From the sequence record ON528737: a stretch of DNA of 64,000 nt, one strand, 5' to 3'. The position numbers and the translations under genes are program-made. Positions within the stretch are counted from its first letter, which is position 1. Each line of letters starts with the position of its first letter. The notes beneath the pieces were generated by a model. The model saw nothing but the letters and a program-made list of their open reading frames with translations. It did no database searches and was not told the origin of the DNA. This document shows, in pieces, positions 28,098-58,330 of the stretch. The stretch comes from Shigella phage ESh27.

Positions 28098-28733
28098 ATG
28101 AAAACTACTCCTATTACTATCGCTATTGACGCAATCATAAAACAAGCTTCTTCTTTGGCCGCTATGGCCAAAGTAATTAGTCAAAACCCTGCTCGTTATA
28201 ATGTTATTCTAGAAACACTTCGACGCCCTGGACTGAGTAATTATGAAAGTCGTGTAATTATTACAGGTGTTGGTAAGAACGCTAATATCGCAACTAAAGC
28301 TTCTGAGACATTTGCTTCACTCGGTATCCCAAGTATGTACTTGAACACCGGGCATTATTCTCACGGTGATGCAGGATTTATTGCGCCTAATGATGTGTTG
28401 ATTCATATTAGTCGTTCTGGTAAGACTGAAGAAATGATAGGTGTTGCTAAACATCTTCGTATGATTCGTCCTCAGGTTAAACAGATTCTGTTACATTGTA
28501 ACCCTGACATTCCACAAGAATACGAAGCTCTTTTTGATTATACGTTCTGTACCGGTATCGCGGTAGAAGTTGACGAGAACTCTTTAGCTCCGACTATGTC
28601 CACTACATTGTTGTTAGCGCTTATCGATACGTTTGCTATCAACCTTTCGTCTGAACGTGGATTTACCTCTAATGACTTCCTTAAGTTCCACCCTGGCGGT
28701 GCACTAGGTGCCATGTTACGAGGCGAACAATGA
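28098..28733 (+). CDS. SIS-domain sugar-phosphate isomerase (KdsD-like arabinose-5-phosphate isomerase)
   Basis: 211 aa; GVGKNANIATKASETFASLGIPS...HGDAG...ISRSGKTEE matches the KdsD/GutQ SIS-domain pattern; no CBS domain. Confidence 0.7.
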   Translation: MKTTPITIAIDAIIKQASSLAAMAKVISQNPARYNVILETLRRPGLSNYESRVIITGVGKNANIATKASETFASLGIPSMYLNTGHYSHGDAGFIAPNDVLIHISRSGKTEEMIGVAKHLRMIRPQVKQILLHCNPDIPQEYEALFDYTFCTGIAVEVDENSLAPTMSTTLLLALIDTFAINLSSERGFTSNDFLKFHPGGALGAMLRGEQ

Positions 28734-28914: not shown

Positions 28915-30600
28915 ATGAAAAAAGCTGTTATTCTTGGTGCTGGATTGGCAACTCGTTTATATCCAATTACTCACCATATTCCAAAAGTTCTTGTGAACTA
29001 TAAACAAGACACTATTCTGAGCAATTTGTATACAATTTATTCTGACCTTGGCGCAGATGAAATTATTGTAGTAGTTCATTCAAAATTTGCTGAAACCGTT
29101 CGAGCTTATTGTGAGCAAGAAGGGTTCAATGTGACTATTCGTACAGTTGATGAAGCGTATGGTTCTGCTTATGCTCTTGCTAAATTACACAAAGATTTAG
29201 ACGGCCATAACGTAGTTGTTAACTGGTGCGATATTATTCCTGATTTTGGTTCATGGTCTTGGAATGTTAACGCAATCTATGTTAAGGGTGATGAATGTCG
29301 ATATAATTTCGATGGTGAAAATATCACTAACGTAGGTTCAACAGGCGGTAATGTTGTAGGAATTTATCAGTTCAAAGACTGGGAATTCTATATGGGTTCT
29401 ACTGATGAGGAAATTCATGAATACTGCAAAGGACGTGATTTCGTAGAATTCCTTTACAGCAGCGCATTCAATAAATCAGAGCTTATGAATCTAATTGATT
29501 TAGGTGATATGCCTAAACTTGAAAAAGCTCATGAAGTTCGTGAACTTAATCGTAGTTTTAATGCAGTTGAAATTGGTGAAGAAACTGTAACTAAATTCGC
29601 ATTAACTGAACAAGGTCGAGCTCTTCAAAAAGATGAGATTTCATGGTATTTGAAAGTGAAATCAGATTCAGTCCCTCAGTTAGTTTCTGTTAATGAAAAT
29701 AACTTTGAAATGGAACGCATTAAAGGTAAGCCAGCATTTGAATATATTAAATCCAAATCAAGTCTTGCTCGTCCACAAATTGTTGATGCAATTTTAGATG
29801 CACTGAAATTCAGCACAGACATTTATTTTGTAAGTCCTGAAACTGTTCGTCGTGATTTCACTAAAGAATTCTATACGAAAGTTATTGATCGTTGTGAAAG
29901 CATTCAACCATTGATTGATTCATTTGGTAAAATCACACATGTGAACTACACTAAGATTGGACGTCTGAAGCCAATGCTGAAACAAGCTTTAGAACATCTT
30001 ATTCGTTATCATAACCGTTCTCAGGGACAGTACTCTGTTATTCATGGTGACCCAAACTTCAGTAATACTATGATTACCGATAACGGCGAAGTCAAGTTTA
30101 TCGACCCTCGTGGATATTTTGGTGAAACCAAGATTTACGGGCCAAAATTGTATGATGAAGCTAAAGTGCTTTATGCTGTTTCAGGTTATGATGAATTCAA
30201 CGCTAATCCGACCTGGGGCCAGTTTATTATTGATGAAACAACTTGTAATGTGACTATTAACATCAATCCATTAGTTTACAAATATGGAAAGATGAGTTCG
30301 TTTAACGAGTATCATCATTTGGCAGTGGCAATTATCTGGATTGCATTAGGTGGTTATTTCAAGAATAATCCACTTAAAGCGGTAGCCGCATATTATAAAG
30401 GTATGGAACTTCTAACTAAGCAATTACGTAACATGGGCCGTGTACTTCAAGATGGCTCTATTAGTTATGACGTAGCAGAACCTGTAACGGCTACTCTGAT
30501 TACAAAAAATCCTGGTAAATGGGTACTAACTGATAAAGAAACTGGTGTTTCCTATCGTCCAATCGGTGGCGATATCACTCATCAATGGGAACGAATCTAA
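28915..30600 (+). CDS. bifunctional sugar-1-phosphate nucleotidyltransferase / sugar kinase (putative)
   Basis: 561 aa; N-terminal GxGxR nucleotidyltransferase motif (AVILGAGLATRLYP...PKVLV); C-terminal APH/choline-kinase-like HGDPNFSN...FIDPRG. Confidence 0.7.
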   Translation: MKKAVILGAGLATRLYPITHHIPKVLVNYKQDTILSNLYTIYSDLGADEIIVVVHSKFAETVRAYCEQEGFNVTIRTVDEAYGSAYALAKLHKDLDGHNVVVNWCDIIPDFGSWSWNVNAIYVKGDECRYNFDGENITNVGSTGGNVVGIYQFKDWEFYMGSTDEEIHEYCKGRDFVEFLYSSAFNKSELMNLIDLGDMPKLEKAHEVRELNRSFNAVEIGEETVTKFALTEQGRALQKDEISWYLKVKSDSVPQLVSVNENNFEMERIKGKPAFEYIKSKSSLARPQIVDAILDALKFSTDIYFVSPETVRRDFTKEFYTKVIDRCESIQPLIDSFGKITHVNYTKIGRLKPMLKQALEHLIRYHNRSQGQYSVIHGDPNFSNTMITDNGEVKFIDPRGYFGETKIYGPKLYDEAKVLYAVSGYDEFNANPTWGQFIIDETTCNVTININPLVYKYGKMSSFNEYHHLAVAIIWIALGGYFKNNPLKAVAAYYKGMELLTKQLRNMGRVLQDGSISYDVAEPVTATLITKNPGKWVLTDKETGVSYRPIGGDITHQWERI

Positions 30601-30986
30601 TGCACCGTGTAGAAAACATGCTTAATCTTTGTTTTGATGTCGATGATTGTATAACAGAGTGGAATAACAATCGTGATTATGTGAACTTCAAACCGGACGT
30701 CGAAATGGTGTCCGCCATTAATGCCCTGTATGATGCAGGGCACACCATAACGCTTTACACGGCTCGTGGTATGAAGTCTGTAGGACCTGGTCGTATAGCA
30801 ATTGACATTCTCCCGAGTCTGATTCAGAACTTGGAAAACATTGGTTTGAAGTACCATAATTTGCTAACACATAAACCAGTATATGATTGGATTATCGACG
30901 ACAAAGCTATGCGTCCTGACGAATTCAAAGCTCTTATGAATAAAGGCGAATTCGAAACATTTAAATCATATAAACCGAATCTATAA
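30600..30986 (+). CDS. HAD-like phosphatase (putative)
   Basis: 128 aa; N-terminal FDVDDCIT resembles HAD motif I (imperfect); TAATG overlap with upstream gene. Confidence 0.5.
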   Translation: MHRVENMLNLCFDVDDCITEWNNNRDYVNFKPDVEMVSAINALYDAGHTITLYTARGMKSVGPGRIAIDILPSLIQNLENIGLKYHNLLTHKPVYDWIIDDKAMRPDEFKALMNKGEFETFKSYKPNL

Positions 30987-31043
30987 TAATTTAAGTAAGA
31001 CCTGCAAAAACCATCGCATCAATTAACGTGAGATGCAAAAAAA

Positions 31044-32204
31044 ATGAATACTTTTAAAATCGGAACGAATTTTGATTTAGCTCTTCTTGATAAAATCGTA
31101 GAGCTCAATAAAACCTATCCTAATAGCTTGATAAACGAAGTATATGGCTCTACAAGAGAAATGGCTTTTGTAGCAGCCAGACCTGATTTTAGGCTTCCTG
31201 ACGTCGACAAAAAGATGTTAGAAGACTATGTTAAACGTTGTAACGAATTAGGTATTTGCTTTAACTATACACTCAACACGATAAATCCTGGTTCAAAAAG
31301 AGAACTAGTTGAGTGGAAGAAGAAAGCTATTCAGGATTATGTTCAGTATCTTTGGTCAATAGGCGTATGGCGTATTACTATCGCTAACCCTGTTGTTATG
31401 GAAATTGTTCGTGAAGTCAATAAAGATATTGAGATTGAAGTTTCAACAATTCTACATGTTGATGCCGTAACTCAAATCAAATACTTACACGACCAATATA
31501 ACATCAAAAAGGTCTGCTGTGGAATTCATAAGAACCGTTCAGTTTCTTTCCTGAAGCGTGCAGCAGAGTTTTGCAATAAGAACAATATAATATTTGAAGT
31601 TCTTGTAAATGAGTTCTGTTCTAATGCTGGTAAAGGGTATACAACACATTGTAGCTATCGTGACTCTTGCTATATTTTCCATAGTACTGATGTTACAGCT
31701 GATGATGCTAAATCCTTAAATGGATATCCAATGCAACACTGCATTAAAGCTCGTGATACAGACCCATTTAACTGGCTGAGAACTCGTTTTGTTCGTCCTC
31801 AAGATTTGAAACTTTATAATGATATTGGTATCACTCAATTCAAAGTTTCAGGACGTACAGGTAGCACAGACTACATTTTGAAAGTTCTTGAAGCATACGC
31901 TTCTGAAAAGTTTGAAGGTAATTTGTTAGAACTGTGGAAGCCTTTAGAGACTATTTTCACTCTTGAAAATGAGACTGAGTTTTCACATACAGTAAATATT
32001 GAAACCTCTTTGTTAGATGGCTTTTTAGAAAAAAGGTGGTTCAGACATCCGGATTTTGATTGTGCTAATGAAATCTGTGGGTCAACGTGTACATATTGTG
32101 AAAGATATTATAAACGTCAATTATCTAAAAATGGGTTAGCAGAAAACTCTATATCTATTATTGATATAACTAACTCTGATGACGCTTTGAGGTACCCGGA
32201 ATGA
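31044..32204 (+). CDS. hypothetical protein with Cys-rich C-terminus
   Basis: 386 aa; C-terminal CANEICGSTCTYCERY plus earlier NEFCSNAG...HCSYRDSCY; family not assigned. Confidence 0.6.
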   Translation: MNTFKIGTNFDLALLDKIVELNKTYPNSLINEVYGSTREMAFVAARPDFRLPDVDKKMLEDYVKRCNELGICFNYTLNTINPGSKRELVEWKKKAIQDYVQYLWSIGVWRITIANPVVMEIVREVNKDIEIEVSTILHVDAVTQIKYLHDQYNIKKVCCGIHKNRSVSFLKRAAEFCNKNNIIFEVLVNEFCSNAGKGYTTHCSYRDSCYIFHSTDVTADDAKSLNGYPMQHCIKARDTDPFNWLRTRFVRPQDLKLYNDIGITQFKVSGRTGSTDYILKVLEAYASEKFEGNLLELWKPLETIFTLENETEFSHTVNIETSLLDGFLEKRWFRHPDFDCANEICGSTCTYCERYYKRQLSKNGLAENSISIIDITNSDDALRYPE

Positions 32205-32440
32205 TTTCTAGAAAAACTTTTAACCACCAACTTAATGAAGAGATTTTGACTATAAAACTGAACACTAACGAACAAATTCTTAAAAAGGCCCTGATGGGCC
32301 TGTTTGAAACTAAAGCGGCTAAAGTGATTAAAGAACCTGTTCAACTAGAATATTATGCTGATGCATTTCTTCATAGTGTTCTTGGAAGTATCGATGCTGA
32401 AGCTTTACGTTATATCAACATTGTCAAGAAATTCAAATAA
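32201..32440 (+). CDS. hypothetical protein
   Basis: 79 aa; ATGA overlap. Confidence 0.45.
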   Translation: MISRKTFNHQLNEEILTIKLNTNEQILKKALMGLFETKAAKVIKEPVQLEYYADAFLHSVLGSIDAEALRYINIVKKFK

Positions 32441-32470
32441 GCTTTACGAATTGAGTATATAATAAATTGT
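32440..32470 (+). promoter_or_regulatory. middle-type promoter candidate
   Basis: aGCTTTAc followed by TATATAAT upstream of gene 42. Confidence 0.3.
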
Positions 32471-32482
32471 ATTGAGGTAAAC

Positions 32483-33199
32483 ATGGGAAAACATAACACA
32501 ATGAAATATATCAAAGCCGCAGATTTTCAAACCGCATTTAAAGCAGTCAATCGTGAAATTTTAGAAAACCCGGAATTCGTAACTGATTCTCGTATTGGAC
32601 GTTGTAATGAAATTGGGTCTATGACCGTAGTTGTTGACACTCCATCATCATTCAAAATGACCGACCCACGTATTAATCGCATCTCTTATGAATATGCCGA
32701 AGACTTCTGGAAGTTTATGATTTCTGGTGGTACCAACGCAGAAGAAGCGTTTAAGGCATATCCTAATGTCGCTAAATTTATTTCTAAACCAAAATCAGAT
32801 GTTTTGCCGGCGAACTTCAACACTTTCTATGGTCCTCGCATTGCGGCCCAATTACCAGCTCTTCTCAAAGAACTTAAAGAGAAGCCTAACTCTCGAAGAG
32901 TTGTGTTCCAAATTCTAGAAAGTTCTGATCAGGCTTTGCTTGATTCAGACGAAACACTTGAATATCCATGTACTGACTCAGTGACTTATTATATTCGTGA
33001 TGGTAAGCTTTATACACACTGTCATATGCGTTCTCAGAACTGTGCTGTTGTTATGCAGTTGGATTTTTATCTCCAAGGAAAATTACTTCATTATATCGCT
33101 AACGAATGTGGTGTAGAAGTTGGTGATTATACTCATACCATGGTAAGTGCCCATGTGTTTGAACGTGATTTTGATTATGTTAAAGGATTCCTTGACTAA
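32483..33199 (+). CDS. 42: dCMP hydroxymethylase gp42 (thymidylate-synthase fold)
   Basis: 238 aa; active-site region PCTDSVTYYIRDGKLYTHCHMRSQNCAVVMQLDF parallels T4 gp42 / thymidylate synthase. Confidence 0.8.
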   Translation: MGKHNTMKYIKAADFQTAFKAVNREILENPEFVTDSRIGRCNEIGSMTVVVDTPSSFKMTDPRINRISYEYAEDFWKFMISGGTNAEEAFKAYPNVAKFISKPKSDVLPANFNTFYGPRIAAQLPALLKELKEKPNSRRVVFQILESSDQALLDSDETLEYPCTDSVTYYIRDGKLYTHCHMRSQNCAVVMQLDFYLQGKLLHYIANECGVEVGDYTHTMVSAHVFERDFDYVKGFLD

Positions 33200-34098
33200 T
33201 GGCTATTTTCCGCGTACCAATCTTGAGTATGCGGTCTTATGAAACTGGACAGTATGCTATCCTTAAGGATGGCAACTTCCAACTTCATTTGCACCGTGCT
33301 AATCCAGGCGATGTGATTACATATCCACGTAATGCATCTGATATTAAAGAATGCGAACGTCTTTTCCCGGAATTTAAGTTTGTTCCATTATGGTATAAAG
33401 ATAACGCGTATAACACTCGTAAATATTTCTGGTCTGAAAACGAATTTGTTGTTGATTCATTAATTGCTTATTATGATTGTGATTTTCTAATCACAGATAT
33501 CACTGGATATGACGGCGCTTTTGATGTAGAATTCAATTTCAATATCACTGCAGACCCTAATAAACCACGTTTTTATATTGACGAATTCTTAAAAACCGAC
33601 ATGTTGTCGGTTAATCGTTCACTTCAAACTACTGTGTTGAATGAACGTCAAAAAGAAGTGCTGGTTAACGCAGGTGCAGACGATAATAAGATTATCGTAA
33701 CGCAGAAAGTTATACGTCCTTCCATCATGCAGCGTCTTGTAGGTGATTTGGCTCCTATTCATGTAGATGGTATTTTTCATCCATTTCGAATTAGTGATCC
33801 GTGTTATCATTTTGAACAAGTGGTTGAATGTGCAATTCAATTAGGTCAACCGCTTTATATAACCGATCCAAATAATAGCTTCGACAGAAATAAGTATCCT
33901 GAAGAAGCGCTGATTCGAATTTTTAAACCAACTAAAACTGAGTACTACCAAATTCTTAAAGGACGTCCGAAGATTCAATATTTCGAAAATCCTGAAGAAG
34001 TATTCCATCCAGGTCTTGGTGAGTTCATCTACTTTAATGCTTTAATTTCTTCGCCGTATAATATACCTAAATACGAAGATGTCGTAATCGAGGAATAA
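33199..34098 (+). CDS. hypothetical protein occupying the beta-glucosyltransferase position
   Basis: 299 aa between gene 42 and uvsX; no recognisable similarity to T4 beta-gt. Confidence 0.6.
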   Translation: MAIFRVPILSMRSYETGQYAILKDGNFQLHLHRANPGDVITYPRNASDIKECERLFPEFKFVPLWYKDNAYNTRKYFWSENEFVVDSLIAYYDCDFLITDITGYDGAFDVEFNFNITADPNKPRFYIDEFLKTDMLSVNRSLQTTVLNERQKEVLVNAGADDNKIIVTQKVIRPSIMQRLVGDLAPIHVDGIFHPFRISDPCYHFEQVVECAIQLGQPLYITDPNNSFDRNKYPEEALIRIFKPTKTEYYQILKGRPKIQYFENPEEVFHPGLGEFIYFNALISSPYNIPKYEDVVIEE

Positions 34099-34099
34099 A

Positions 34100-34648
34100 A
34101 TGGCTAAAATTATTTTAGTAGATGGCCCGGATAATGCCGGTAAAACAACTTTCATTAATGACATAATGGAAATTAGTGAAAGATATGTAAAGATTGATTT
34201 CCCTAAACGAACAGTTGATGGACGTTTCGATGTTAAGTCTCGAAATGAAGTTGGTTGTTTCGAAACGATGTTGAATTATTTAGACCCTACTAAGATTTAT
34301 CTGTTAGACCGTGGATATATTAGTAACTGGGTTTATGGACGTATTCGACAAGATGCGGACTCGGTTCTTGACGTTTATGAACAGGATTATGTTCGTCTTT
34401 GTCAAAACCATGATGTGTTCACAATTATTTTAACACGTAACGAAATGACTGAAAGTTTTGAAGACGACCTTATTACTTTGTCTTCATTCGGTTTTAATAC
34501 AGTCATTTCACATTTTGAAGAGTTTGCAATTCATAACAAAATCCAAACGTATCAATTACTTAATCATGATGGTGCTAACAAAGTTATAGGATTTAATGCA
34601 AGCGAACGTAATGATTTGATTACAGAAATTATCAAATGGGCTCGTTAA
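34100..34648 (+). CDS. P-loop NMP-kinase-like protein (thymidylate-kinase fold)
   Basis: 182 aa; Walker A GPDNAGKTT and DRGY motif like TMPK DR(Y/H). Confidence 0.55.
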   Translation: MAKIILVDGPDNAGKTTFINDIMEISERYVKIDFPKRTVDGRFDVKSRNEVGCFETMLNYLDPTKIYLLDRGYISNWVYGRIRQDADSVLDVYEQDYVRLCQNHDVFTIILTRNEMTESFEDDLITLSSFGFNTVISHFEEFAIHNKIQTYQLLNHDGANKVIGFNASERNDLITEIIKWAR

Positions 34649-34667
34649 GAGCCTGTTTAAAGTTTTA

Positions 34668-34694
34668 AATGCTGTATAACCCTTAGTATATAAT
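34668..34694 (+). promoter_or_regulatory. middle-type promoter candidate upstream of uvsX
   Basis: aaaTGCTgtA followed about 12 nt later by TATATAAT. Confidence 0.35.
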
Positions 34695-34747
34695 CATCTT
34701 ATCTTTTAAACGTGAGTAAAATATAATGATGCCTATGGAAAAATACA

Positions 34748-35920
34748 ATGTCTGATTTAAAATCTCGTCTGATTAAAGCTTCTACTTCTAAAATGACTGC
34801 AGACTTGACTAAGTCTAAGCTGTTTAATAATCGTGATGAAGTCCCTACTCGTATTCCGATGTTGAATATTGCACTAGGTGGTGCTCTGAATGCAGGATTG
34901 CAATCAGGCTTGACTATTTTTGCTGCACCTTCTAAACATTTTAAAACATTGTTTGGACTAACTATGGTTGCAGCGTATATGAAGAAATATAAAGATGCAA
35001 TCTGTTTGTTCTATGATTCGGAATTTGGTGCTTCGGAATCTTACTTCCGTTCGATGGGTGTTGATTTGGACCGCGTAGTTCATACACCAATTCAGTCTGT
35101 CGAACAACTTAAAGTCGATATGACTAATCAGCTTGATGCTATTGAACGCGGTGATAAAGTTATTATCTTTATCGATTCAATCGGTAATACTGCATCTAAG
35201 AAAGAAACCGAAGATGCATTGAACGAGAAAGTTGTAGGTGATATGTCTCGTGCTAAGGCACTTAAATCTCTGTTCCGCATTGTGACTCCTTATCTGACTA
35301 TTAAAGATATTCCGTGTGTTGCAATCAACCATACAGCAATGGAAATCGGCGGACTATATCCTAAAGAGATTATGGGTGGTGGTACAGGTATTCTTTACTC
35401 TGCTAACACTGTATTCTTTATCTCTAAACGTCAGGTTAAAGAAGGTACAGAATTGACCGGTTATGACTTCACGTTGAAAGCAGAAAAATCTCGTACGGTT
35501 AAAGAGAAATCTACTTTCCCGATCACGGTTAATTTTGATGGCGGTATTGACCCATTCAGCGGCTTGTTAGAAATGGCAACTGAAATTGGTTTTGTGGTTA
35601 AACCTAAAGCCGGTTGGTATGCTCGTGAATTCCTTGACGAAGAAACAGGTGAAATGATTCGTGAAGAGAAATCATGGCGTGCTAAAGCTACTGATTGCGT
35701 AGAATTCTGGGGACCGTTGTTTAAACACAAACCTTTCCGAGATGCAATTGAAACTAAATATAAACTAGGTGCTATCTCTTCTATTAAAGAAGTTGATGAC
35801 GCTGTTAACGATCTTATTAATTGCAAAGCAACAACTAAAGTTCCGGTTAAAACTTCTGATGCTCCATCTGCAGCAGATATAGAAAACGACCTTGACGAAA
35901 TGGAAGATTTCGATGAATAA
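34748..35920 (+). CDS. uvsX: recombinase UvsX (RecA/Rad51-like)
   Basis: 390 aa; strong match to remembered T4 UvsX (MSDLKSRLIKASTSK...). Confidence 0.9.
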   Translation: MSDLKSRLIKASTSKMTADLTKSKLFNNRDEVPTRIPMLNIALGGALNAGLQSGLTIFAAPSKHFKTLFGLTMVAAYMKKYKDAICLFYDSEFGASESYFRSMGVDLDRVVHTPIQSVEQLKVDMTNQLDAIERGDKVIIFIDSIGNTASKKETEDALNEKVVGDMSRAKALKSLFRIVTPYLTIKDIPCVAINHTAMEIGGLYPKEIMGGGTGILYSANTVFFISKRQVKEGTELTGYDFTLKAEKSRTVKEKSTFPITVNFDGGIDPFSGLLEMATEIGFVVKPKAGWYAREFLDEETGEMIREEKSWRAKATDCVEFWGPLFKHKPFRDAIETKYKLGAISSIKEVDDAVNDLINCKATTKVPVKTSDAPSAADIENDLDEMEDFDE

Positions 35921-52850: not shown

Positions 52851-54668
52851 ATGATTAAAAATGAAATTAAGGTACTGTCAGATGTAGAACATATTAAGAA
52901 ACGTAGTGGTATGTATATTGGTTCTTCTGCTAAAGAAGCACATGAACGTTTTTTGTTTGGTAAATATCAACAAGTTGAATATGTTCCTGGTCTGGTTAAA
53001 TTAATCGATGAGATTATTGACAACTCGGTTGATGAAGCTATTCGTACATCATTTAAGTTTGCAAATAAAATTGATGTGCAAATTAAAAATAATCAAGTTT
53101 CGGTGGAAGATAACGGACGTGGTATTCCTCAAGGTTTAGTTACCGACCAAACGGGTGAACAAATTCCTGGGCCTGTTGCAGCCTGGACTATTCCAAAAGC
53201 CGGTGGTAACTTTGGTGATGACTCTGAACGTAAGACTGGTGGTATGAACGGCGTCGGGAGTAGTTTAACTAATATCTTCTCTACGTTGTTTACAGGCATA
53301 ACGTCAGATGGCGAAAATGAAATCACTGTTAACTGTTCAAACGGGATGGAAAACAAATCATGGTCTTCTAAGAAATCTAAAGGTAAAGGCACTAAAGTAA
53401 TCTTCACTCCTGATTTCACTTCATTTGAAGAGCATAATTTATCTCAAATTTATTTAGATATTACTTTAGACCGACTTCAAACATTGGCAGTCGTTTATCC
53501 TGATATCAAGTTCACATTTAACGGTAAAAAGGTTGATGGTAATTTTAAACGATTTGCTAAACAATTTGGCGAAGATAATATCATTCAAGAAAATGATAAA
53601 GTCTCTATAGCATTCACAACATCACCAGATGGCTTCCGTCATTTAACTTATGTGAATAACATCCATACTAAAAATGGTGGACATCATGTTGAATGTGTAA
53701 TGGACGATATCTGCGAACATCTTTTGCCAGGTATTAAAAAGAAATATAAGGGTATTGAAGTCACTAAAGCTCGTGTTAAAGAATGCCTCACAATGTTGAT
53801 GTTTATTAGAGACATGAGTAACATGCGTTTTGATTCTCAGACTAAAGAACGTTTAACGTCAACATATGGTGATATTCGTAATCATATCCAATTAGATGCT
53901 AAGAAAATTGCTCAGGCACTTCTTAAAAACGAAGCCTTGATTATGCCTATTGTTGAAGCAGCATTAGCTCGTAAATTGGCAGCAGAAAAGGCTGCAGAAA
54001 CTAAAGCAGCTAAAAAGGCCACTAAAGCTAAGGTTCATAAGCATATTAAAGCTAACCAATGCGGTAAAGATGCAGATACGACATTGTTTTTAACAGAAGG
54101 TGATTCGGCAATTGGATATCTCATTGATGTTCGTGACCGTGAACTACATGGCGGATTCCCATTACGTGGTAAGGTGATGAATAGCTGGGGTATGTCATAT
54201 GCTGATATGATGAAGAACAAAGAGCTCTTTGATATCTGTGCTATCACAGGTCTTATTCTTGGTGAAAAAGCAGAGAATACGAACTATCGTAATATTGCAA
54301 TTATGACCGATGCCGATCATGACGGTCTTGGAAGTATCTATCCGGCTTTGCTTGCTTTCTTTAGTAATTGGCCTGAATTGTTTGAACAAGGACGTATTCG
54401 CTTTGTTAAAACGCCTGTAATTATTGCACAAATTGGCAAAACACAAAAATGGTTTTATACTGTAGCTGAGTATGAAGAAGCTAAAGATACACTGCCTAAG
54501 CATAGTATTCGATACATCAAGGGATTAGGCTCCCTTGAAAAGTCAGAATATCGTGAAATGATTCAGAACCCTGTGTACGACGTAGTTAAACTTCCTGAAA
54601 ATTGGAAAGAACTCTTTGAAATGTTGATGGGTGATGATTCAGAACTTCGTAAAGAATGGATGTCCTAA
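52851..54668 (+). CDS. 39: DNA topoisomerase II large subunit gp39 (GyrB-like ATPase plus TOPRIM; 39 and 60 fused)
   Basis: 605 aa; GHKL ATPase motifs (IDNSVDEA, GRGIP, GGMNGVGSS) and TOPRIM (LTEGDSA, DADHDG) in one ORF. Confidence 0.9.
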   Translation: MIKNEIKVLSDVEHIKKRSGMYIGSSAKEAHERFLFGKYQQVEYVPGLVKLIDEIIDNSVDEAIRTSFKFANKIDVQIKNNQVSVEDNGRGIPQGLVTDQTGEQIPGPVAAWTIPKAGGNFGDDSERKTGGMNGVGSSLTNIFSTLFTGITSDGENEITVNCSNGMENKSWSSKKSKGKGTKVIFTPDFTSFEEHNLSQIYLDITLDRLQTLAVVYPDIKFTFNGKKVDGNFKRFAKQFGEDNIIQENDKVSIAFTTSPDGFRHLTYVNNIHTKNGGHHVECVMDDICEHLLPGIKKKYKGIEVTKARVKECLTMLMFIRDMSNMRFDSQTKERLTSTYGDIRNHIQLDAKKIAQALLKNEALIMPIVEAALARKLAAEKAAETKAAKKATKAKVHKHIKANQCGKDADTTLFLTEGDSAIGYLIDVRDRELHGGFPLRGKVMNSWGMSYADMMKNKELFDICAITGLILGEKAENTNYRNIAIMTDADHDGLGSIYPALLAFFSNWPELFEQGRIRFVKTPVIIAQIGKTQKWFYTVAEYEEAKDTLPKHSIRYIKGLGSLEKSEYREMIQNPVYDVVKLPENWKELFEMLMGDDSELRKEWMS

Positions 54669-54710: not shown

Positions 54711-55811
54711 ATGAAAGTTATGTTTATCCCATCTCGCGCAGTCCCGTTTAACCCAGAACGTGTACAAGGTGGTCTTGAAGCAGTACATTTAAATGTGTTG
54801 AAATATCTTGTGTCCATCGGTGCTGATATTGATTATATCGGCTTTGATAATGACACGTTTGGTGACTGGAAAGTTACACACCATCCTGTTGGTCATCTGA
54901 CTAAATTCAGTCTAGGTATGAGTTATACTATGGCTCGTAAGATTGTTGAACTAGCCGGCATTAATGAGTACGATTTCGTTGTTACAATGGAACCGACCAA
55001 ACTAACCGTTCAGGCAATTAAAGACGCAGGTCTCTCTAAAGTTCATAAGAATTTTATGGCAACACCATTTGAACCGGTATCTCGTGGCATTGTTCAAATT
55101 TGGGACCAGACTATTCAAATTCATAAGAATGGTGGTAAGAGTTATGCTCCTACTAAAGCCTTCCGTGAATTTGAACGCAAATATTGTTATATGACTTCAG
55201 GACTGACTGACAAAATTGATTATGATTATTGGCGAGCAAATCCGTTGTTTGAAGCCGAAGATTATCCGGTTATTTGTTTGACTGAAAAACCGGAAGTTCT
55301 CCCAGCAACTGATTTGATTATTAGTGCTCAACGTTATGACACTAAGATGCGTCGTACTGATGTTGCTCTTGAAGCGATTAAAGCATTAGGCGAAAATGGT
55401 ATTGGTTATTGTCCAAGCAAATGGGCACCACCAGCTAAGTATCCTGTTATTATTGATGCTCCACACAGTGAAATCATGGAACGTCTTAAAACAGCTAAAG
55501 CACTTATTAATACGTGTCCTGACACGGGTACGGTAGAGAATAGTTCTATTGAAGCCATCTCTAAAGGTGTCCCTGTAATTCAGTTAGTTTTTAAGGATTA
55601 TCCGCATGCGACATTCGAATATGACCCAGATACTGTGCGTGTAGAAATTGATTCCTCTACTCCTAAGAAAGAAGTAGTTGCGCTTTACACAAAAGCTGTA
55701 TTAGAATTCACTGACACGTACGAAGCTCGAGTTAAACGTGCTGAAGCAGTATGGAAGAAGTATAACCGAGATGCAGTTGTTGCAATGTGGGATAAAATCT
55801 TCACAGCGTAA
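54711..55811 (+). CDS. GT-B fold glycosyltransferase (candidate DNA glycosyl/arabinosyl-transferase)
   Basis: 366 aa; N-terminal MKVMFIPSRAVPFNPERVQGGLEAVHLNVLKYL and C-terminal ENSSIEAISKGVPVI resemble GT4-type GT-B motifs; sits between gene 39 and rIIA. Confidence 0.65.
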   Translation: MKVMFIPSRAVPFNPERVQGGLEAVHLNVLKYLVSIGADIDYIGFDNDTFGDWKVTHHPVGHLTKFSLGMSYTMARKIVELAGINEYDFVVTMEPTKLTVQAIKDAGLSKVHKNFMATPFEPVSRGIVQIWDQTIQIHKNGGKSYAPTKAFREFERKYCYMTSGLTDKIDYDYWRANPLFEAEDYPVICLTEKPEVLPATDLIISAQRYDTKMRRTDVALEAIKALGENGIGYCPSKWAPPAKYPVIIDAPHSEIMERLKTAKALINTCPDTGTVENSSIEAISKGVPVIQLVFKDYPHATFEYDPDTVRVEIDSSTPKKEVVALYTKAVLEFTDTYEARVKRAEAVWKKYNRDAVVAMWDKIFTA

Positions 55812-56116: not shown

Positions 56117-58330
56117 ATGATTATTGAAACGGCTAAAGAAACGATTATTGGTTCAGGCGGTAAGAGCACAGCATTCACTATTCAAGGCAATAGCAAAGTT
56201 TATAAGATTTTGTCTAATGACCTTTATACAAACAAAGAATTGGCTTGTGTACGTGAATTAATTACAAACTGTATCGATGGACAAATTCTTAATGGTTGCA
56301 CTGATAAGTTTATTGTTCAGGCTCCAGGTCGTTTAGACCCACGCTTTGTAGTTCGAGACTTTGGTCCTGGTATGAGCGATTTCACTATTCGAGGTAATGA
56401 CGAAGAGCCAGGAATCTATAACTCATATTTTGCTTCAACTAAAACATCGAGCAACGATTTCATTGGTGGATTCGGGCTCGGCTCTAAAGCTCCGCTAGCA
56501 TATACCGATACGTTTAACCTTACGTCTTATCACAACGGTGAAGTTCGTGGTTACGTAATCTACCAAGATGACACAGGTCCACAAATTAAGCCGACCTTTG
56601 TAGATAAAATGGGTCCTGATGACCGTACGGGTGTAGAAGTAGTTGTACCGGTTAACCCGGAAGATTTTGAAAAATTCGCATCCGAAATTGCATATGTTAT
56701 GCGTCCTCTAGGTGATATTGCAGAAGTTCGTGGTGTTAAAGATATTAAATACTTCCCAGAATTTGATGATGTATATTTGGCCAAGGAAGCTCCATGGGGT
56801 GAACGTGGTAACATCATGGCTGTTTACGGTGGTATTGTATATCCAATCGGAAGTGTTATTAAAGAACAAACATGGATGATGACGCGATGCACTACAGCTT
56901 ATATTAAATTCCCTATGGGTGAACTAGATGTAGCCCCGTCTCGTGAAGCATTGTCATTTGATAAACGTACAGTAGCAAATATCCATAAACGTGTTGCAGA
57001 AATCGATGCTAAATTGTTCGCTGAAGATTCTAAGAAATGGATTGATTGTAAATACCCACGTCATGTGTTCCGTGAAATTGATTCTCTTGGTTATACCGCT
57101 CGTAAATACATGGAAAAGGCCGGGTCTAATATTGAATCACTGAAATACTCTAAAGAACAACTAACTTATTCTGAGTTGTACAAACGTTTTAAAATGGGAC
57201 CTGAGTGGTGTAATCTTGGTGTCGTATACGATATCGTTGAATCCCCTCGTCTTCGTCGTATTCGTGAAAGTGGTAGCTCATCATCAACCATTTCAATTAA
57301 CAGCCTGATTGGCATTAACATTAAAAACGTTGAAATTGTTATTGACGACGTTAAGGGACGCGTTCCATTAATGCGAGCTCTTAATTCAATTGAAATGTCT
57401 AAAGACGAGGTTAAATTATCCGGTAAAGTTCCACGCGGTTTTGGTAAAAGCGTACTATTCGTTGACCCTACAGACGAAGATGCAATGAAACTTCTGGAAC
57501 GCCTTAAAGTTATCTTTGATGGCGATAGCATTAACATGTACAAGACTTCAGAGCTTTTACAAATCGTTAAGCCATGGATTGAAGTCAGGAAACGGACTAA
57601 TGAGCCTCGTCCTAAATCCCCAAGTGCTCATCGATTCTTTAAGAATGAAAACGATGTTTGGGTATCAGAAGACCTCTTTATTCCGGCAAGTGAAGCAGAT
57701 GAAATCCAAGGTTATGCTATAGTTCGTAATCGTTCTAATGCTGAATGTCTTGACGCAGATAAAGGTTGGTTGAACTATGACTCCAATTTCTTGACCCGTA
57801 TTGCTGATTTGTCAGGTATTAAAGAGTTCACTGTAGTTCGTCCACAGATTGCTAAGAAAGTTCGTAAACTTGGTGAAGTAGAATGTTTGTTTGAAAAATC
57901 AATTAATGACTATATTATGCTAATCGATAAAGTAGATTATGATGAGTATGTATCACCAAGTCGTAGAGCACAGCCTTATTTGAATCATATTACTCGTAAC
58001 GAAGAGCTTAATTTCCTTAGTAAGTATTTTAGCTCTAAGAACAAAGAAATCAGTAAAGACTTTGCAAAACTCTCAACAGTAAATAATCGTTGGGGATGGA
58101 ATCGATTCGCAGGTGCTACTAATACAGACCTGAACAGGAAGTTAGAATTGTGTGCTAAAATTTTCGATAAGCTTAAAGATAATGCTTACGATAATGATGA
58201 TAAAATGGTTATTGAATTCGAAACCAATTATCATATTGTGTCAGAATACATGGGACGACGTGGTACTCTTTCTAAAGAACAAGTCGCTCAAATCGTTAAA
58301 TTCATGAAGGCCGTGGAAGCGGCCAAATAA
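56117..58330 (+). CDS. rIIA: rIIA protein
   Basis: 737 aa; N-terminus MIIETAKETIIGSGGKS...LYTNKELACVRELITNCID matches remembered T4 rIIA. Confidence 0.9.
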   Translation: MIIETAKETIIGSGGKSTAFTIQGNSKVYKILSNDLYTNKELACVRELITNCIDGQILNGCTDKFIVQAPGRLDPRFVVRDFGPGMSDFTIRGNDEEPGIYNSYFASTKTSSNDFIGGFGLGSKAPLAYTDTFNLTSYHNGEVRGYVIYQDDTGPQIKPTFVDKMGPDDRTGVEVVVPVNPEDFEKFASEIAYVMRPLGDIAEVRGVKDIKYFPEFDDVYLAKEAPWGERGNIMAVYGGIVYPIGSVIKEQTWMMTRCTTAYIKFPMGELDVAPSREALSFDKRTVANIHKRVAEIDAKLFAEDSKKWIDCKYPRHVFREIDSLGYTARKYMEKAGSNIESLKYSKEQLTYSELYKRFKMGPEWCNLGVVYDIVESPRLRRIRESGSSSSTISINSLIGINIKNVEIVIDDVKGRVPLMRALNSIEMSKDEVKLSGKVPRGFGKSVLFVDPTDEDAMKLLERLKVIFDGDSINMYKTSELLQIVKPWIEVRKRTNEPRPKSPSAHRFFKNENDVWVSEDLFIPASEADEIQGYAIVRNRSNAECLDADKGWLNYDSNFLTRIADLSGIKEFTVVRPQIAKKVRKLGEVECLFEKSINDYIMLIDKVDYDEYVSPSRRAQPYLNHITRNEELNFLSKYFSSKNKEISKDFAKLSTVNNRWGWNRFAGATNTDLNRKLELCAKIFDKLKDNAYDNDDKMVIEFETNYHIVSEYMGRRGTLSKEQVAQIVKFMKAVEAAK

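Follow-up and report, generated by a model that had tools for sequence, protein, structure and literature searches.

Here we describe two adjacent genes of Shigella phage ESh27 (sequence record ON528737), of which a stretch of 64,000 nucleotides, referred to as the window, was analysed. The two open reading frames (ORFs) lie at positions 33199-34648 and code for proteins of 299 and 182 amino acids (aa); the coordinates and lengths given for them in a preliminary description of this DNA are exact, and tblastn searches returned matches to the two proteins in 348 and 343 phage records, respectively. Together with the phrog matches and the AlphaFold2 models given below, this shows that they are genuine genes and did not arise as ORFs by chance. 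The pair is flanked by the gene for a 238-aa thymidylate synthase (ThyA) homolog and by uvsX. The stop codon of the ThyA homolog gene overlaps the start codon of the gene for the 299-aa protein (TAATG), and the start codon of the gene for the 182-aa protein is located one base past the stop codon of its neighbour (TAA-A-ATG), with GAGG just upstream. Because of these junctions, the three genes are translationally coupled. We propose, with moderate confidence, that the two proteins are the transferase and the kinase of a pathway for 5-O-arabinosyl-cytosine DNA hypermodification.

A 7-kb stretch is approximately 97.8% identical to Mosigvirus genomes, such as those of phiC120, Bas46 'ChristianSchoenbein' and JK45, and the window belongs to a Mosigvirus of the RB69/HY126/Bas46 type. 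In the Bas46 annotation, the counterpart of the 299-aa protein is a 'hypothetical protein' and that of the 182-aa protein a 'putative thymidylate kinase'. As the preliminary description stated, the beta-gt gene of T4 is located between gene 42 and uvsX; segA is found there as well, and RB69 possesses an eight-gene module between the DNA polymerase gene and uvsX, which is absent from T4 (Thomas et al. 2018, PMC6024577). In the window, the beta-gt slot likewise holds genes for DNA modification.

Fold and conserved residues of the 299-aa protein

For the 299-aa protein, only the comparison of folds was informative, as the sequence searches came back empty. Neither the protein nor 54 members of its family matched a Pfam family even at E<=1, no NCBIfam match was obtained for the protein, and a profile of the family gave no match among PDB sequences. 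The earlier statement that the protein carries no obvious glycosyltransferase signature is therefore true at the sequence level. The protein matches phrog_3891, a group of unknown function, with 7e-156 over residues 1-298. Its AlphaFold2 model, which has a predicted local distance difference test score (pLDDT) of 94.9, consists of two beta/alpha/beta domains of the Rossmann-like type that are separated by a cleft, and in the fold comparison it scored 17.1 with BshA, 16.1 with PimA and 16.0 with AviGT4, followed by WaaG (15.2), the glycosyltransferase of phage HY126 (9iqz, 14.7) and the T4 alpha-glucosyltransferase (alpha-GT; 1y6f, 13.3). Judged by this model, the protein is a minimal glycosyltransferase of the GT-B fold, and it is called GT1 hereafter. 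The T4 beta-glucosyltransferase (beta-GT) is not among the 60 matches listed, which led us to reject the idea that GT1 is a diverged beta-gt kept in its slot; no specific structural or sequence similarity of GT1 to this GT63 enzyme was found.

Among the residues that are invariant across the GT1 family are R12, K23, R33, R74 and D100 of the N-terminal domain and R197, D200, K246 and H270-P-G of the C-terminal domain. Position 275 is always acidic, with E found in 47 of the 54 members and D in the other 7, and may be equivalent to the acidic residue by which GT-B enzymes bind the nucleotide ribose, next to basic residues for the diphosphate. The EX7E motif of GT4 enzymes, which would correspond to E267-x7-E275, was considered as a feature of the family and rejected, as its first position is K or T in most members. 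GT1 is an acidic protein with an isoelectric point (pI) of 5.05 and a net charge of -12, and the median pI of the family is 5.15.

A Foldseek search against BFVD assigned the N-terminal part of GT1 to RB69ORF047c (98% identity) and the C-terminal part to RB69ORF046c (97% identity), and GT1 is thus the counterpart of RB69 gp46:47. This gene pair is treated as one gene, 'arabinosyltransferase 1', which was split in the RB69 record through a sequencing error (Lee et al., NAR 2026, PMC13326640). RB69 gp46:47, DLP3 gp79 and Thanatos TH1_063 are orthologs of GT1, and the gene that is split in the RB69 record is intact here. With the T4 alpha-GT and beta-GT, GT1 shares the GT-B fold and, by prediction, a role in the O-glycosylation of phage DNA bases, and with beta-gt it also shares the genomic slot between a ThyA-like gene and uvsX. 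In contrast, it has no sequence similarity to the two T4 enzymes and is shorter, with 299 aa as compared to 351 and 400 aa (PMC6024577). We infer its donor and acceptor, next to the fold, motifs, orthology, synteny and co-occurrence that are observed directly: the donor is predicted to be UDP-arabinofuranose (UDP-Araf) instead of UDP-glucose, and the acceptor the 5-OH of the ring instead of a hydroxymethyl group. GT1 is probably the first (alpha) arabinofuranosyltransferase acting on 5-hydroxycytosine (5hoC). The preliminary description had suggested a second transferase or an accessory factor; the GT-B fold, which that description had missed, bears out a transferase, and it is the rank that changes, since GT1 is probably the first enzyme and a 366-aa protein encoded elsewhere in the window, GT2, the second.

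The 182-aa kinase

The 182-aa protein matches phrog_761 ('thymidylate kinase') with 1.6e-45, and its tblastn matches have the same genus distribution as those of GT1. Its AlphaFold2 model (pLDDT 89.4) shows the fold of a nucleoside monophosphate kinase, which in the structural comparison is closest to thymidylate kinase (TMPK); T4 gp1 (1dek/1del) is not its closest structural relative. The check by remote homology and structure prediction that the preliminary description had called for thus points to a GT-B fold for the first and a TMPK-like fold for the second protein. Across 24 homologs of the kinase, G9, D11, G14, K15, T16, D70 and R71 do not vary. When it was compared by hhalign with the human and vaccinia TMPKs, GPDNAGKT aligned to GVDRAGKS of the human enzyme, a P-loop with the TMPK-type Asp, FPKR aligned to FPER and SRNE to NRWE (probability 77%), and DRGY to DRY of the vaccinia enzyme. 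The P-loop and the thymidylate-kinase-like motifs that had been noted earlier (GPDNAGKT, FPKR and DRGY) are therefore present. Of the two putative nucleotide-binding arginines, R48 is invariant in the 24 homologs and R37 is not (R45 in FPER and R76 in NRWE would be the human counterparts of this pair), and the lid region is acidic (FEDD) with a single invariant arginine, R113.

No match to PF02223 was found for the kinase at E<=0.1, TIGR00041 gave 16.6 bits against a cutoff of 83, and a profile of the kinase family retrieved from the PDB sequences only P-loop-level matches to TMPKs and spurious RecA repeats. In an exhaustive profile search of 1.84 billion representative proteins, no more than 291 relatives reached E<=1e-3. 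As the protein falls below the TMPK thresholds and has so few relatives, we regard it, on sequence grounds, as belonging to a minor branch of the TMPKs that is restricted to phages. Compared with the TMPKs of vaccinia (2v54) and human, its NMP-binding segment, FPKR-SRNE, is about 20 residues shorter, the Arg of the P-loop is replaced by Asn, basic residues of the lid give way to an acidic motif, F-x-D-D-L-I, that is invariant, and the family, which remains below the family thresholds, is confined to phage 5hoC clusters in the contexts examined. RB69 gp45, which is listed as 'nucleotide kinase' (PMC13326640), DLP3 gp78 and the 'nucleotide kinase' RL38J1_214 are orthologs, from which no difference is known. 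Like T4 gp1 and RB69 gp159, the protein would be a P-loop deoxynucleoside monophosphate (dNMP) kinase through which modified dCMP reaches the pool of dNTPs. We infer that its substrate is a modified dCMP, namely 5-hydroxy-dCMP (5hodCMP), which may be arabinosylated.

The hydroxylase, transferase and kinase trio and its proposed pathway

The ThyA homolog is near-identical to PDB entry 9iqc over residues 1-238. We take this entry to be the HY126 enzyme with a crystal structure that is mentioned in PMC13326640. The ThyA homolog of RB69, gp48, is a flavin-binding 5-hydroxy-dCMP synthase that uses O2 (PMC13326640). The protein encoded here is consequently a flavin-dependent 5-hydroxy-dCMP synthase and not the hydroxymethylase gp42 of T4, and the preliminary description, which had taken this neighbour for gene 42 (dCMP hydroxymethylase), was mistaken on this point. 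Its hydroxymethyl-dC (hm-dC) chemistry falls with it, because a 5-hydroxy-dCMP synthase implies 5-O-arabinosyl-cytosine. The DNA of RB69 contains arabinose, for which ORF003c was proposed as the transferase (PMC6024577); the modification consists of an arabinofuranose joined via an oxygen directly to C5 and, when finished, has no phosphate (PMC13326640). The RB69 kinase gp159, which is of the gp1 type, phosphorylates 5hodCMP, and expression of the synthase and gp159 alone suffices for 5hodC to enter DNA readily (PMC13326640). As the work of He et al. 2026 is summarised in PMC13326640, the sugar of HY126 is activated by AfhE and AfhF, the counterparts of a 561-aa protein and of a HAD-type phosphatase encoded in the window (Table 1), and AfhE has the activities of an arabinose-5-phosphate kinase as well as of a UDP-arabinose pyrophosphorylase. 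Together with an isomerase, the 561-aa and HAD proteins make UDP-arabinofuranose. An arabinosyltransferase, 'Aat', was deleted in Bas46 by Mahler et al. 2025, according to PMC13216743.

The cluster genes were mapped in 51 viral loci (L003-L053) that encode relatives of GT1. The usual order is ThyA homolog, GT1 and kinase. The ThyA homolog and GT1 genes are adjacent in all of the 48 loci that reach the upstream position, except for L050 and L052. Of the 51 loci, 45 gave a match to the kinase, and in a 46th, L050, a TMPK-like kinase detected by Pfam is encoded just upstream; three loci end directly after GT1. In the loci of Dhakavirus, Marfavirus and Proteus phages, the kinase gene is located a few genes upstream, and Thanatos TH1_064 is a homolog with 43% identity. 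GT1 and the kinase also co-occur in the larger set of phage genomes (348 and 343). In 16 loci that are GC-rich and not of the T4 type (L030-L043, L045 and L053), the order is flavodoxin-like FMN reductase, ThyA homolog, GT1 and kinase, with a GT1 homolog of approximately 350 aa (for example L043, 4792-7570), and no genes for arabinose synthesis were found within 6 kb of these modules. The dedicated flavin reductase fits a flavin-dependent hydroxylase.

By its gene context, the kinase belongs with the hydroxylase and the transferase and not with sugar activation, and its occurrence in modules without arabinose genes argues for a nucleotide rather than a sugar as its substrate. The proposal in the preliminary description of a kinase for a modified dNMP or a sugar can thus be narrowed: a modified dNMP is most plausible, and a sugar is unlikely, as that role is reported for AfhE and the kinase occurs without arabinose genes. 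An assignment as arabinose-5-phosphate kinase was rejected on the same two grounds.

Neither Pfam nor NCBIfam yields a match for GT2. The protein is near-identical to 9iqz/9ir0, a crystal structure named 'phage HY126 glycosyltransferase', and is proposed to be the second (beta) arabinosyltransferase. Paralogs of the GT2 type are absent from Thanatos, present once in Mosigvirus and found twice, after the kinase gene, in Acinetobacter phages. The DNA is mono-arabinosylated in Thanatos, di-arabinosylated in RB69 and tri-arabinosylated in DLP3 (PMC13326640), and the number of additional GT2-type genes (0, 1 and 2, respectively) tracks that of the additional arabinoses, which fits GT1 as the universal first transferase. 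Two loci differ in their surroundings. In L049 (5452-7107), the GT1 homolog forms part of a 551-aa protein, in an N-terminal fusion to a KdsC-like HAD phosphatase, and in L051 (4304-6201) it is followed by a gene resembling those for UDP-galactopyranose mutase, which suggests that the sugar is galactofuranose rather than arabinofuranose. Both contexts fit a sugar transferase whose donor depends on the phage. About 50 phage loci contain the trio, among them loci of non-T4 phages without arabinose-synthesis genes in the vicinity. The three genes stay together in unrelated lineages of phages as a portable core, around which the sugar-supply genes, and possibly the hydroxylases, are interchangeable.

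Table 1. Genes of the proposed arabinosylation pathway and their neighbours in the window
Feature	Position	Strand	Evidence
Arabinose-5-phosphate isomerase (RB69 gp55)	28098..28733	+	Pfam SIS; NCBIfam KpsF/GutQ 5e-32, KdsD 2e-30
561-aa bifunctional sugar-1-phosphate nucleotidyltransferase and kinase (AfhE-like; RB69 gp52:53)	28915..30600	+	Pfam NTP_transferase, APH-like C-terminus; NCBIfam
133-aa HAD-type phosphatase (AfhF-like; RB69 gp51)	30585..30986	+	phrog_1238; NCBIfam capsule biosynthesis phosphatase 2e-13
386-aa U32-family protein (RB69 gp50)	31044..32204	+	Pfam Peptidase_U32 7e-11; weak UbiU match
Thymidylate synthase (ThyA) homolog, 238 aa	32483..33199	+	Pfam Thymidylat_synt 2e-15; PDB 9iqc/9iqu E 8e-161
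GT1, 299 aa, ATG start	33199..34098	+	ORF list; predicted compact GT-B-fold glycosyltransferase
Thymidylate-kinase-like P-loop kinase, 182 aa, ATG start	34100..34648	+	ORF list
uvsX	34748..35920		Pfam T4_UVSX_C 1e-38
GT2, 366-aa GT-B glycosyltransferase (RB69 ORF003c/gp3 homolog)	54711..55811	+	Near-identical to PDB 9iqz, E 2e-248

Further features of the region were recorded (Table 1). The GT2 gene is located between the gene for the topoisomerase large subunit (52851-54668) and an ORF of 737 aa (56117-58330) without a family match, which we take from its position to be rIIA. The U32 gene and the gene for the ThyA homolog are separated, on the plus strand, by an ORF for a basic 79-aa protein (32201-32440; pI 9.3; phrog_8601, unknown function), which is conserved in close relatives only. 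Scans for sigma-70 promoters and terminators across 30900-35000 showed no enrichment, their results being equal to or lower than those expected from shuffled sequence. On inspection by eye, a MotA-box-like aaGCTTTAc was seen about 12 bp before a TATAAT upstream of the ThyA homolog gene (~32436-32466), and aTGCTGTAt precedes a TATAAT upstream of uvsX (~34668-34696); at this level of inspection, both sites resemble the arrangement of T4 middle promoters.

The U32 family includes RlhA, which forms 5-hydroxycytidine in 23S rRNA, TrhP, which forms 5-hydroxyuridine in tRNA, and UbiU/UbiV, and these members are O2-independent, prephenate-dependent hydroxylases. The 386-aa protein has a conserved C-terminal C-x4-C-x3-C-x2-C motif. 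Its gene is present in the loci of enterobacterial and Shewanella phages and absent from those of Acinetobacter and Pseudomonas phages and from JS98-like loci. In L050/L059 and in L052, which are unrelated phages that have a pol III alpha polymerase, a 50%-identical ortholog is encoded in a module of kinase, GT1-like and U32 genes, and no ThyA homolog was found within +-10 kb in L050/L059 or within the locus in L052. It is possible that the U32 protein provides an oxygen-independent route to 5-hydroxycytosine for infection in anoxic habitats. In RB69, gp50 is labelled 'sugar or heterocycle reductase' (PMC13326640).

Several relatives of the kinase (P0179, P0180, P0185 and also P0251) are fused to DNA-glycosylase domains; the coordinates of such fusions are 8001-9074 in L054, 1446-2390 in L055 and 127-1092 in L056. 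In some of them, the additional domain is an MBD4-like HhH-GPD domain (PDB 4ew4, E 4e-9), which has an Asp in a GKYxxD segment where MBD4 has its catalytic Asp, and in one relative it is a domain of the UDG superfamily. The fusions are encoded directly after ThyA homologs, next to genes for FMN reductases, isomerases and AfhE-like proteins, or just before a GT1-like ORF. No relatives of the fusions were found in the viral contigs searched for them.

Order of reactions and alternative explanations

In the pathway that we propose, the ThyA homolog would convert dCMP to 5hodCMP, from which the 182-aa kinase and/or gp1 would make the diphosphate. The triphosphate would then be formed and built into DNA, where GT1 would move the base-proximal alpha-D-Araf from UDP-Araf onto the 5-OH of 5-hydroxycytosine and GT2 would add the second sugar. 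Several points weigh against this assignment. In the papers covered, no enzymatic activity is reported for either protein. GT1 falls outside every glycosyltransferase sequence family tested (Pfam and the PDB-sequence profile), and its family does not conserve the Glu with which the EX7E motif of GT4 begins. Purified DLP3 glycosyltransferases, including gp79, were tested singly with UDP-Araf or UDP-arabinopyranose (UDP-Arap) as donors and did not arabinosylate 5hoC-DNA, a result stated as data not shown (PMC13326640). RB69 gp159 already phosphorylates 5hodCMP (PMC13326640), which leaves the need for a second kinase unexplained, and the loci L049 and L051 encode GT1 without a nearby kinase. An assay of the Thanatos ortholog, which is taken up below, counts among these points as well.

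Some of these observations would be accounted for if the first sugar were added before replication. GT1 would then arabinosylate free 5-hydroxy-dCMP, the kinase would take Araf-5hodCMP as its substrate, having been kept since a gp1-type kinase could not take this bulky nucleotide, the phage polymerase would use a dCTP that already bears a sugar, and DNA itself would receive only the second one. This order would explain the retention of the second kinase in 343 genomes though gp159 handles 5hodCMP, the failure of the DLP3 homolog on DNA and the tight coupling of the hydroxylase, GT1 and kinase genes. The co-occurrence of GT1 and the kinase in three types of module across unrelated phage lineages points in the same direction, as does, weakly, the acidic pI of GT1. 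The host enzymes Nth and Nei excise 5-hydroxycytosine, and bare 5hoC in DNA would be at risk; a sugar added before replication would shield this repair-prone base from host glycosylases. The published data leave a mononucleotide and DNA undistinguished as substrates of the first arabinosylation (PMC13326640). On the other hand, all characterised phage DNA glycosylations are post-replicative, the later DLP3 glycosyltransferases act on DNA and 5hodC is readily incorporated with only the synthase and gp159 (PMC13326640). A dedicated 5hodCMP kinase would be equally expected in a mobile module, and GT1 lacks a nearby kinase in the two loci named above. We consider the pre-replicative order rather unlikely; if true, it would be the first example in nature of a nucleobase that is glycosylated before incorporation.

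For the 182-aa protein, the function of an ordinary dTMP kinase, or of a general nucleotide kinase that is redundant and lacks a specific link to the modification, seems very improbable to us. Its best structural matches are indeed TMPKs, and many genome records annotate it as 'thymidylate kinase'. However, it scores far below the Pfam and NCBIfam TMPK thresholds, and its family is tiny and stands apart from cellular TMPKs. Every context examined is a 5-hydroxycytosine cluster, in which the gene is found beside those for the hydroxylase and GT1 or, for the fusions, beside a ThyA homolog gene. T4-type phages already phosphorylate dTMP with gp1, and RB69 has the gp1-type kinase gp159.

Even less credence can be given to the view that the 299-aa protein is a UDP-pentose pyrophosphorylase, which makes the activated sugar and does not transfer it. 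It derives from TH1_063 (Shewanella phage Thanatos-1, L002 4995-5897), which is 47% identical to GT1 and which, after purification, gave UDP-xylose from UTP and xylose-1-phosphate, as detected by liquid chromatography-tandem mass spectrometry (LC-MS/MS), according to PMC12838424. As described there, the assay consisted of one end-point measurement on a surrogate sugar, in which co-purified E. coli enzymes were not excluded. The same paper reports the canonical nucleotidyltransferase TH1_060 as inactive on xylose-1-phosphate. In the window, a canonical nucleotidyltransferase domain is present in the 561-aa protein, and the UDP-arabinose pyrophosphorylase activity is reported for HY126 AfhE, in the summary given in PMC13326640. 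A pyrophosphorylase is hard to reconcile with the GT-B fold and with AfhE, and the assignment of TH1_063 as UDP-xylose pyrophosphorylase deserves re-examination.

It is just as improbable that the kinase acts on DNA or on a sugar, for instance by phosphorylating a base hydroxyl in DNA, instead of on a free dNMP: other pathways of phage hypermodification include P-loop kinases whose targets are DNA bases, such as the 5-hydroxymethyluracil DNA kinases of thymidine-hypermodifying phages, and members of the family are fused to MBD4-like HhH-GPD or UDG-superfamily domains, a hint of activity close to DNA, but the TMPK-specific nucleotide-binding motifs are kept, the final modification has no phosphate and the sugar kinase step already belongs to the AfhE-type enzyme.

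Taken together, we favour a role of GT1 and the 182-aa kinase in the arabinosylation of 5-hydroxycytosine, with the first sugar transferred on DNA. The gene pair has already been described in the 2025-2026 literature in the form of its orthologs, and the remaining interest lies in the acceptor of GT1, the substrate of the kinase and the variants of the module. The pair covers the first sugar transfer and the kinase of the cluster, which are the two steps of the pathway that are only predicted, and the portable trio narrows the substrate of the kinase to a nucleotide and provides a compact marker for finding new phages with glycosylated cytosine. Arabinosylated 5-hydroxycytosine guards a large group of T4-like phages from attack by restriction enzymes, by CRISPR-Cas and by DNA glycosylases, and among the members of this group are candidates for therapy against E. 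coli, Klebsiella and Acinetobacter.

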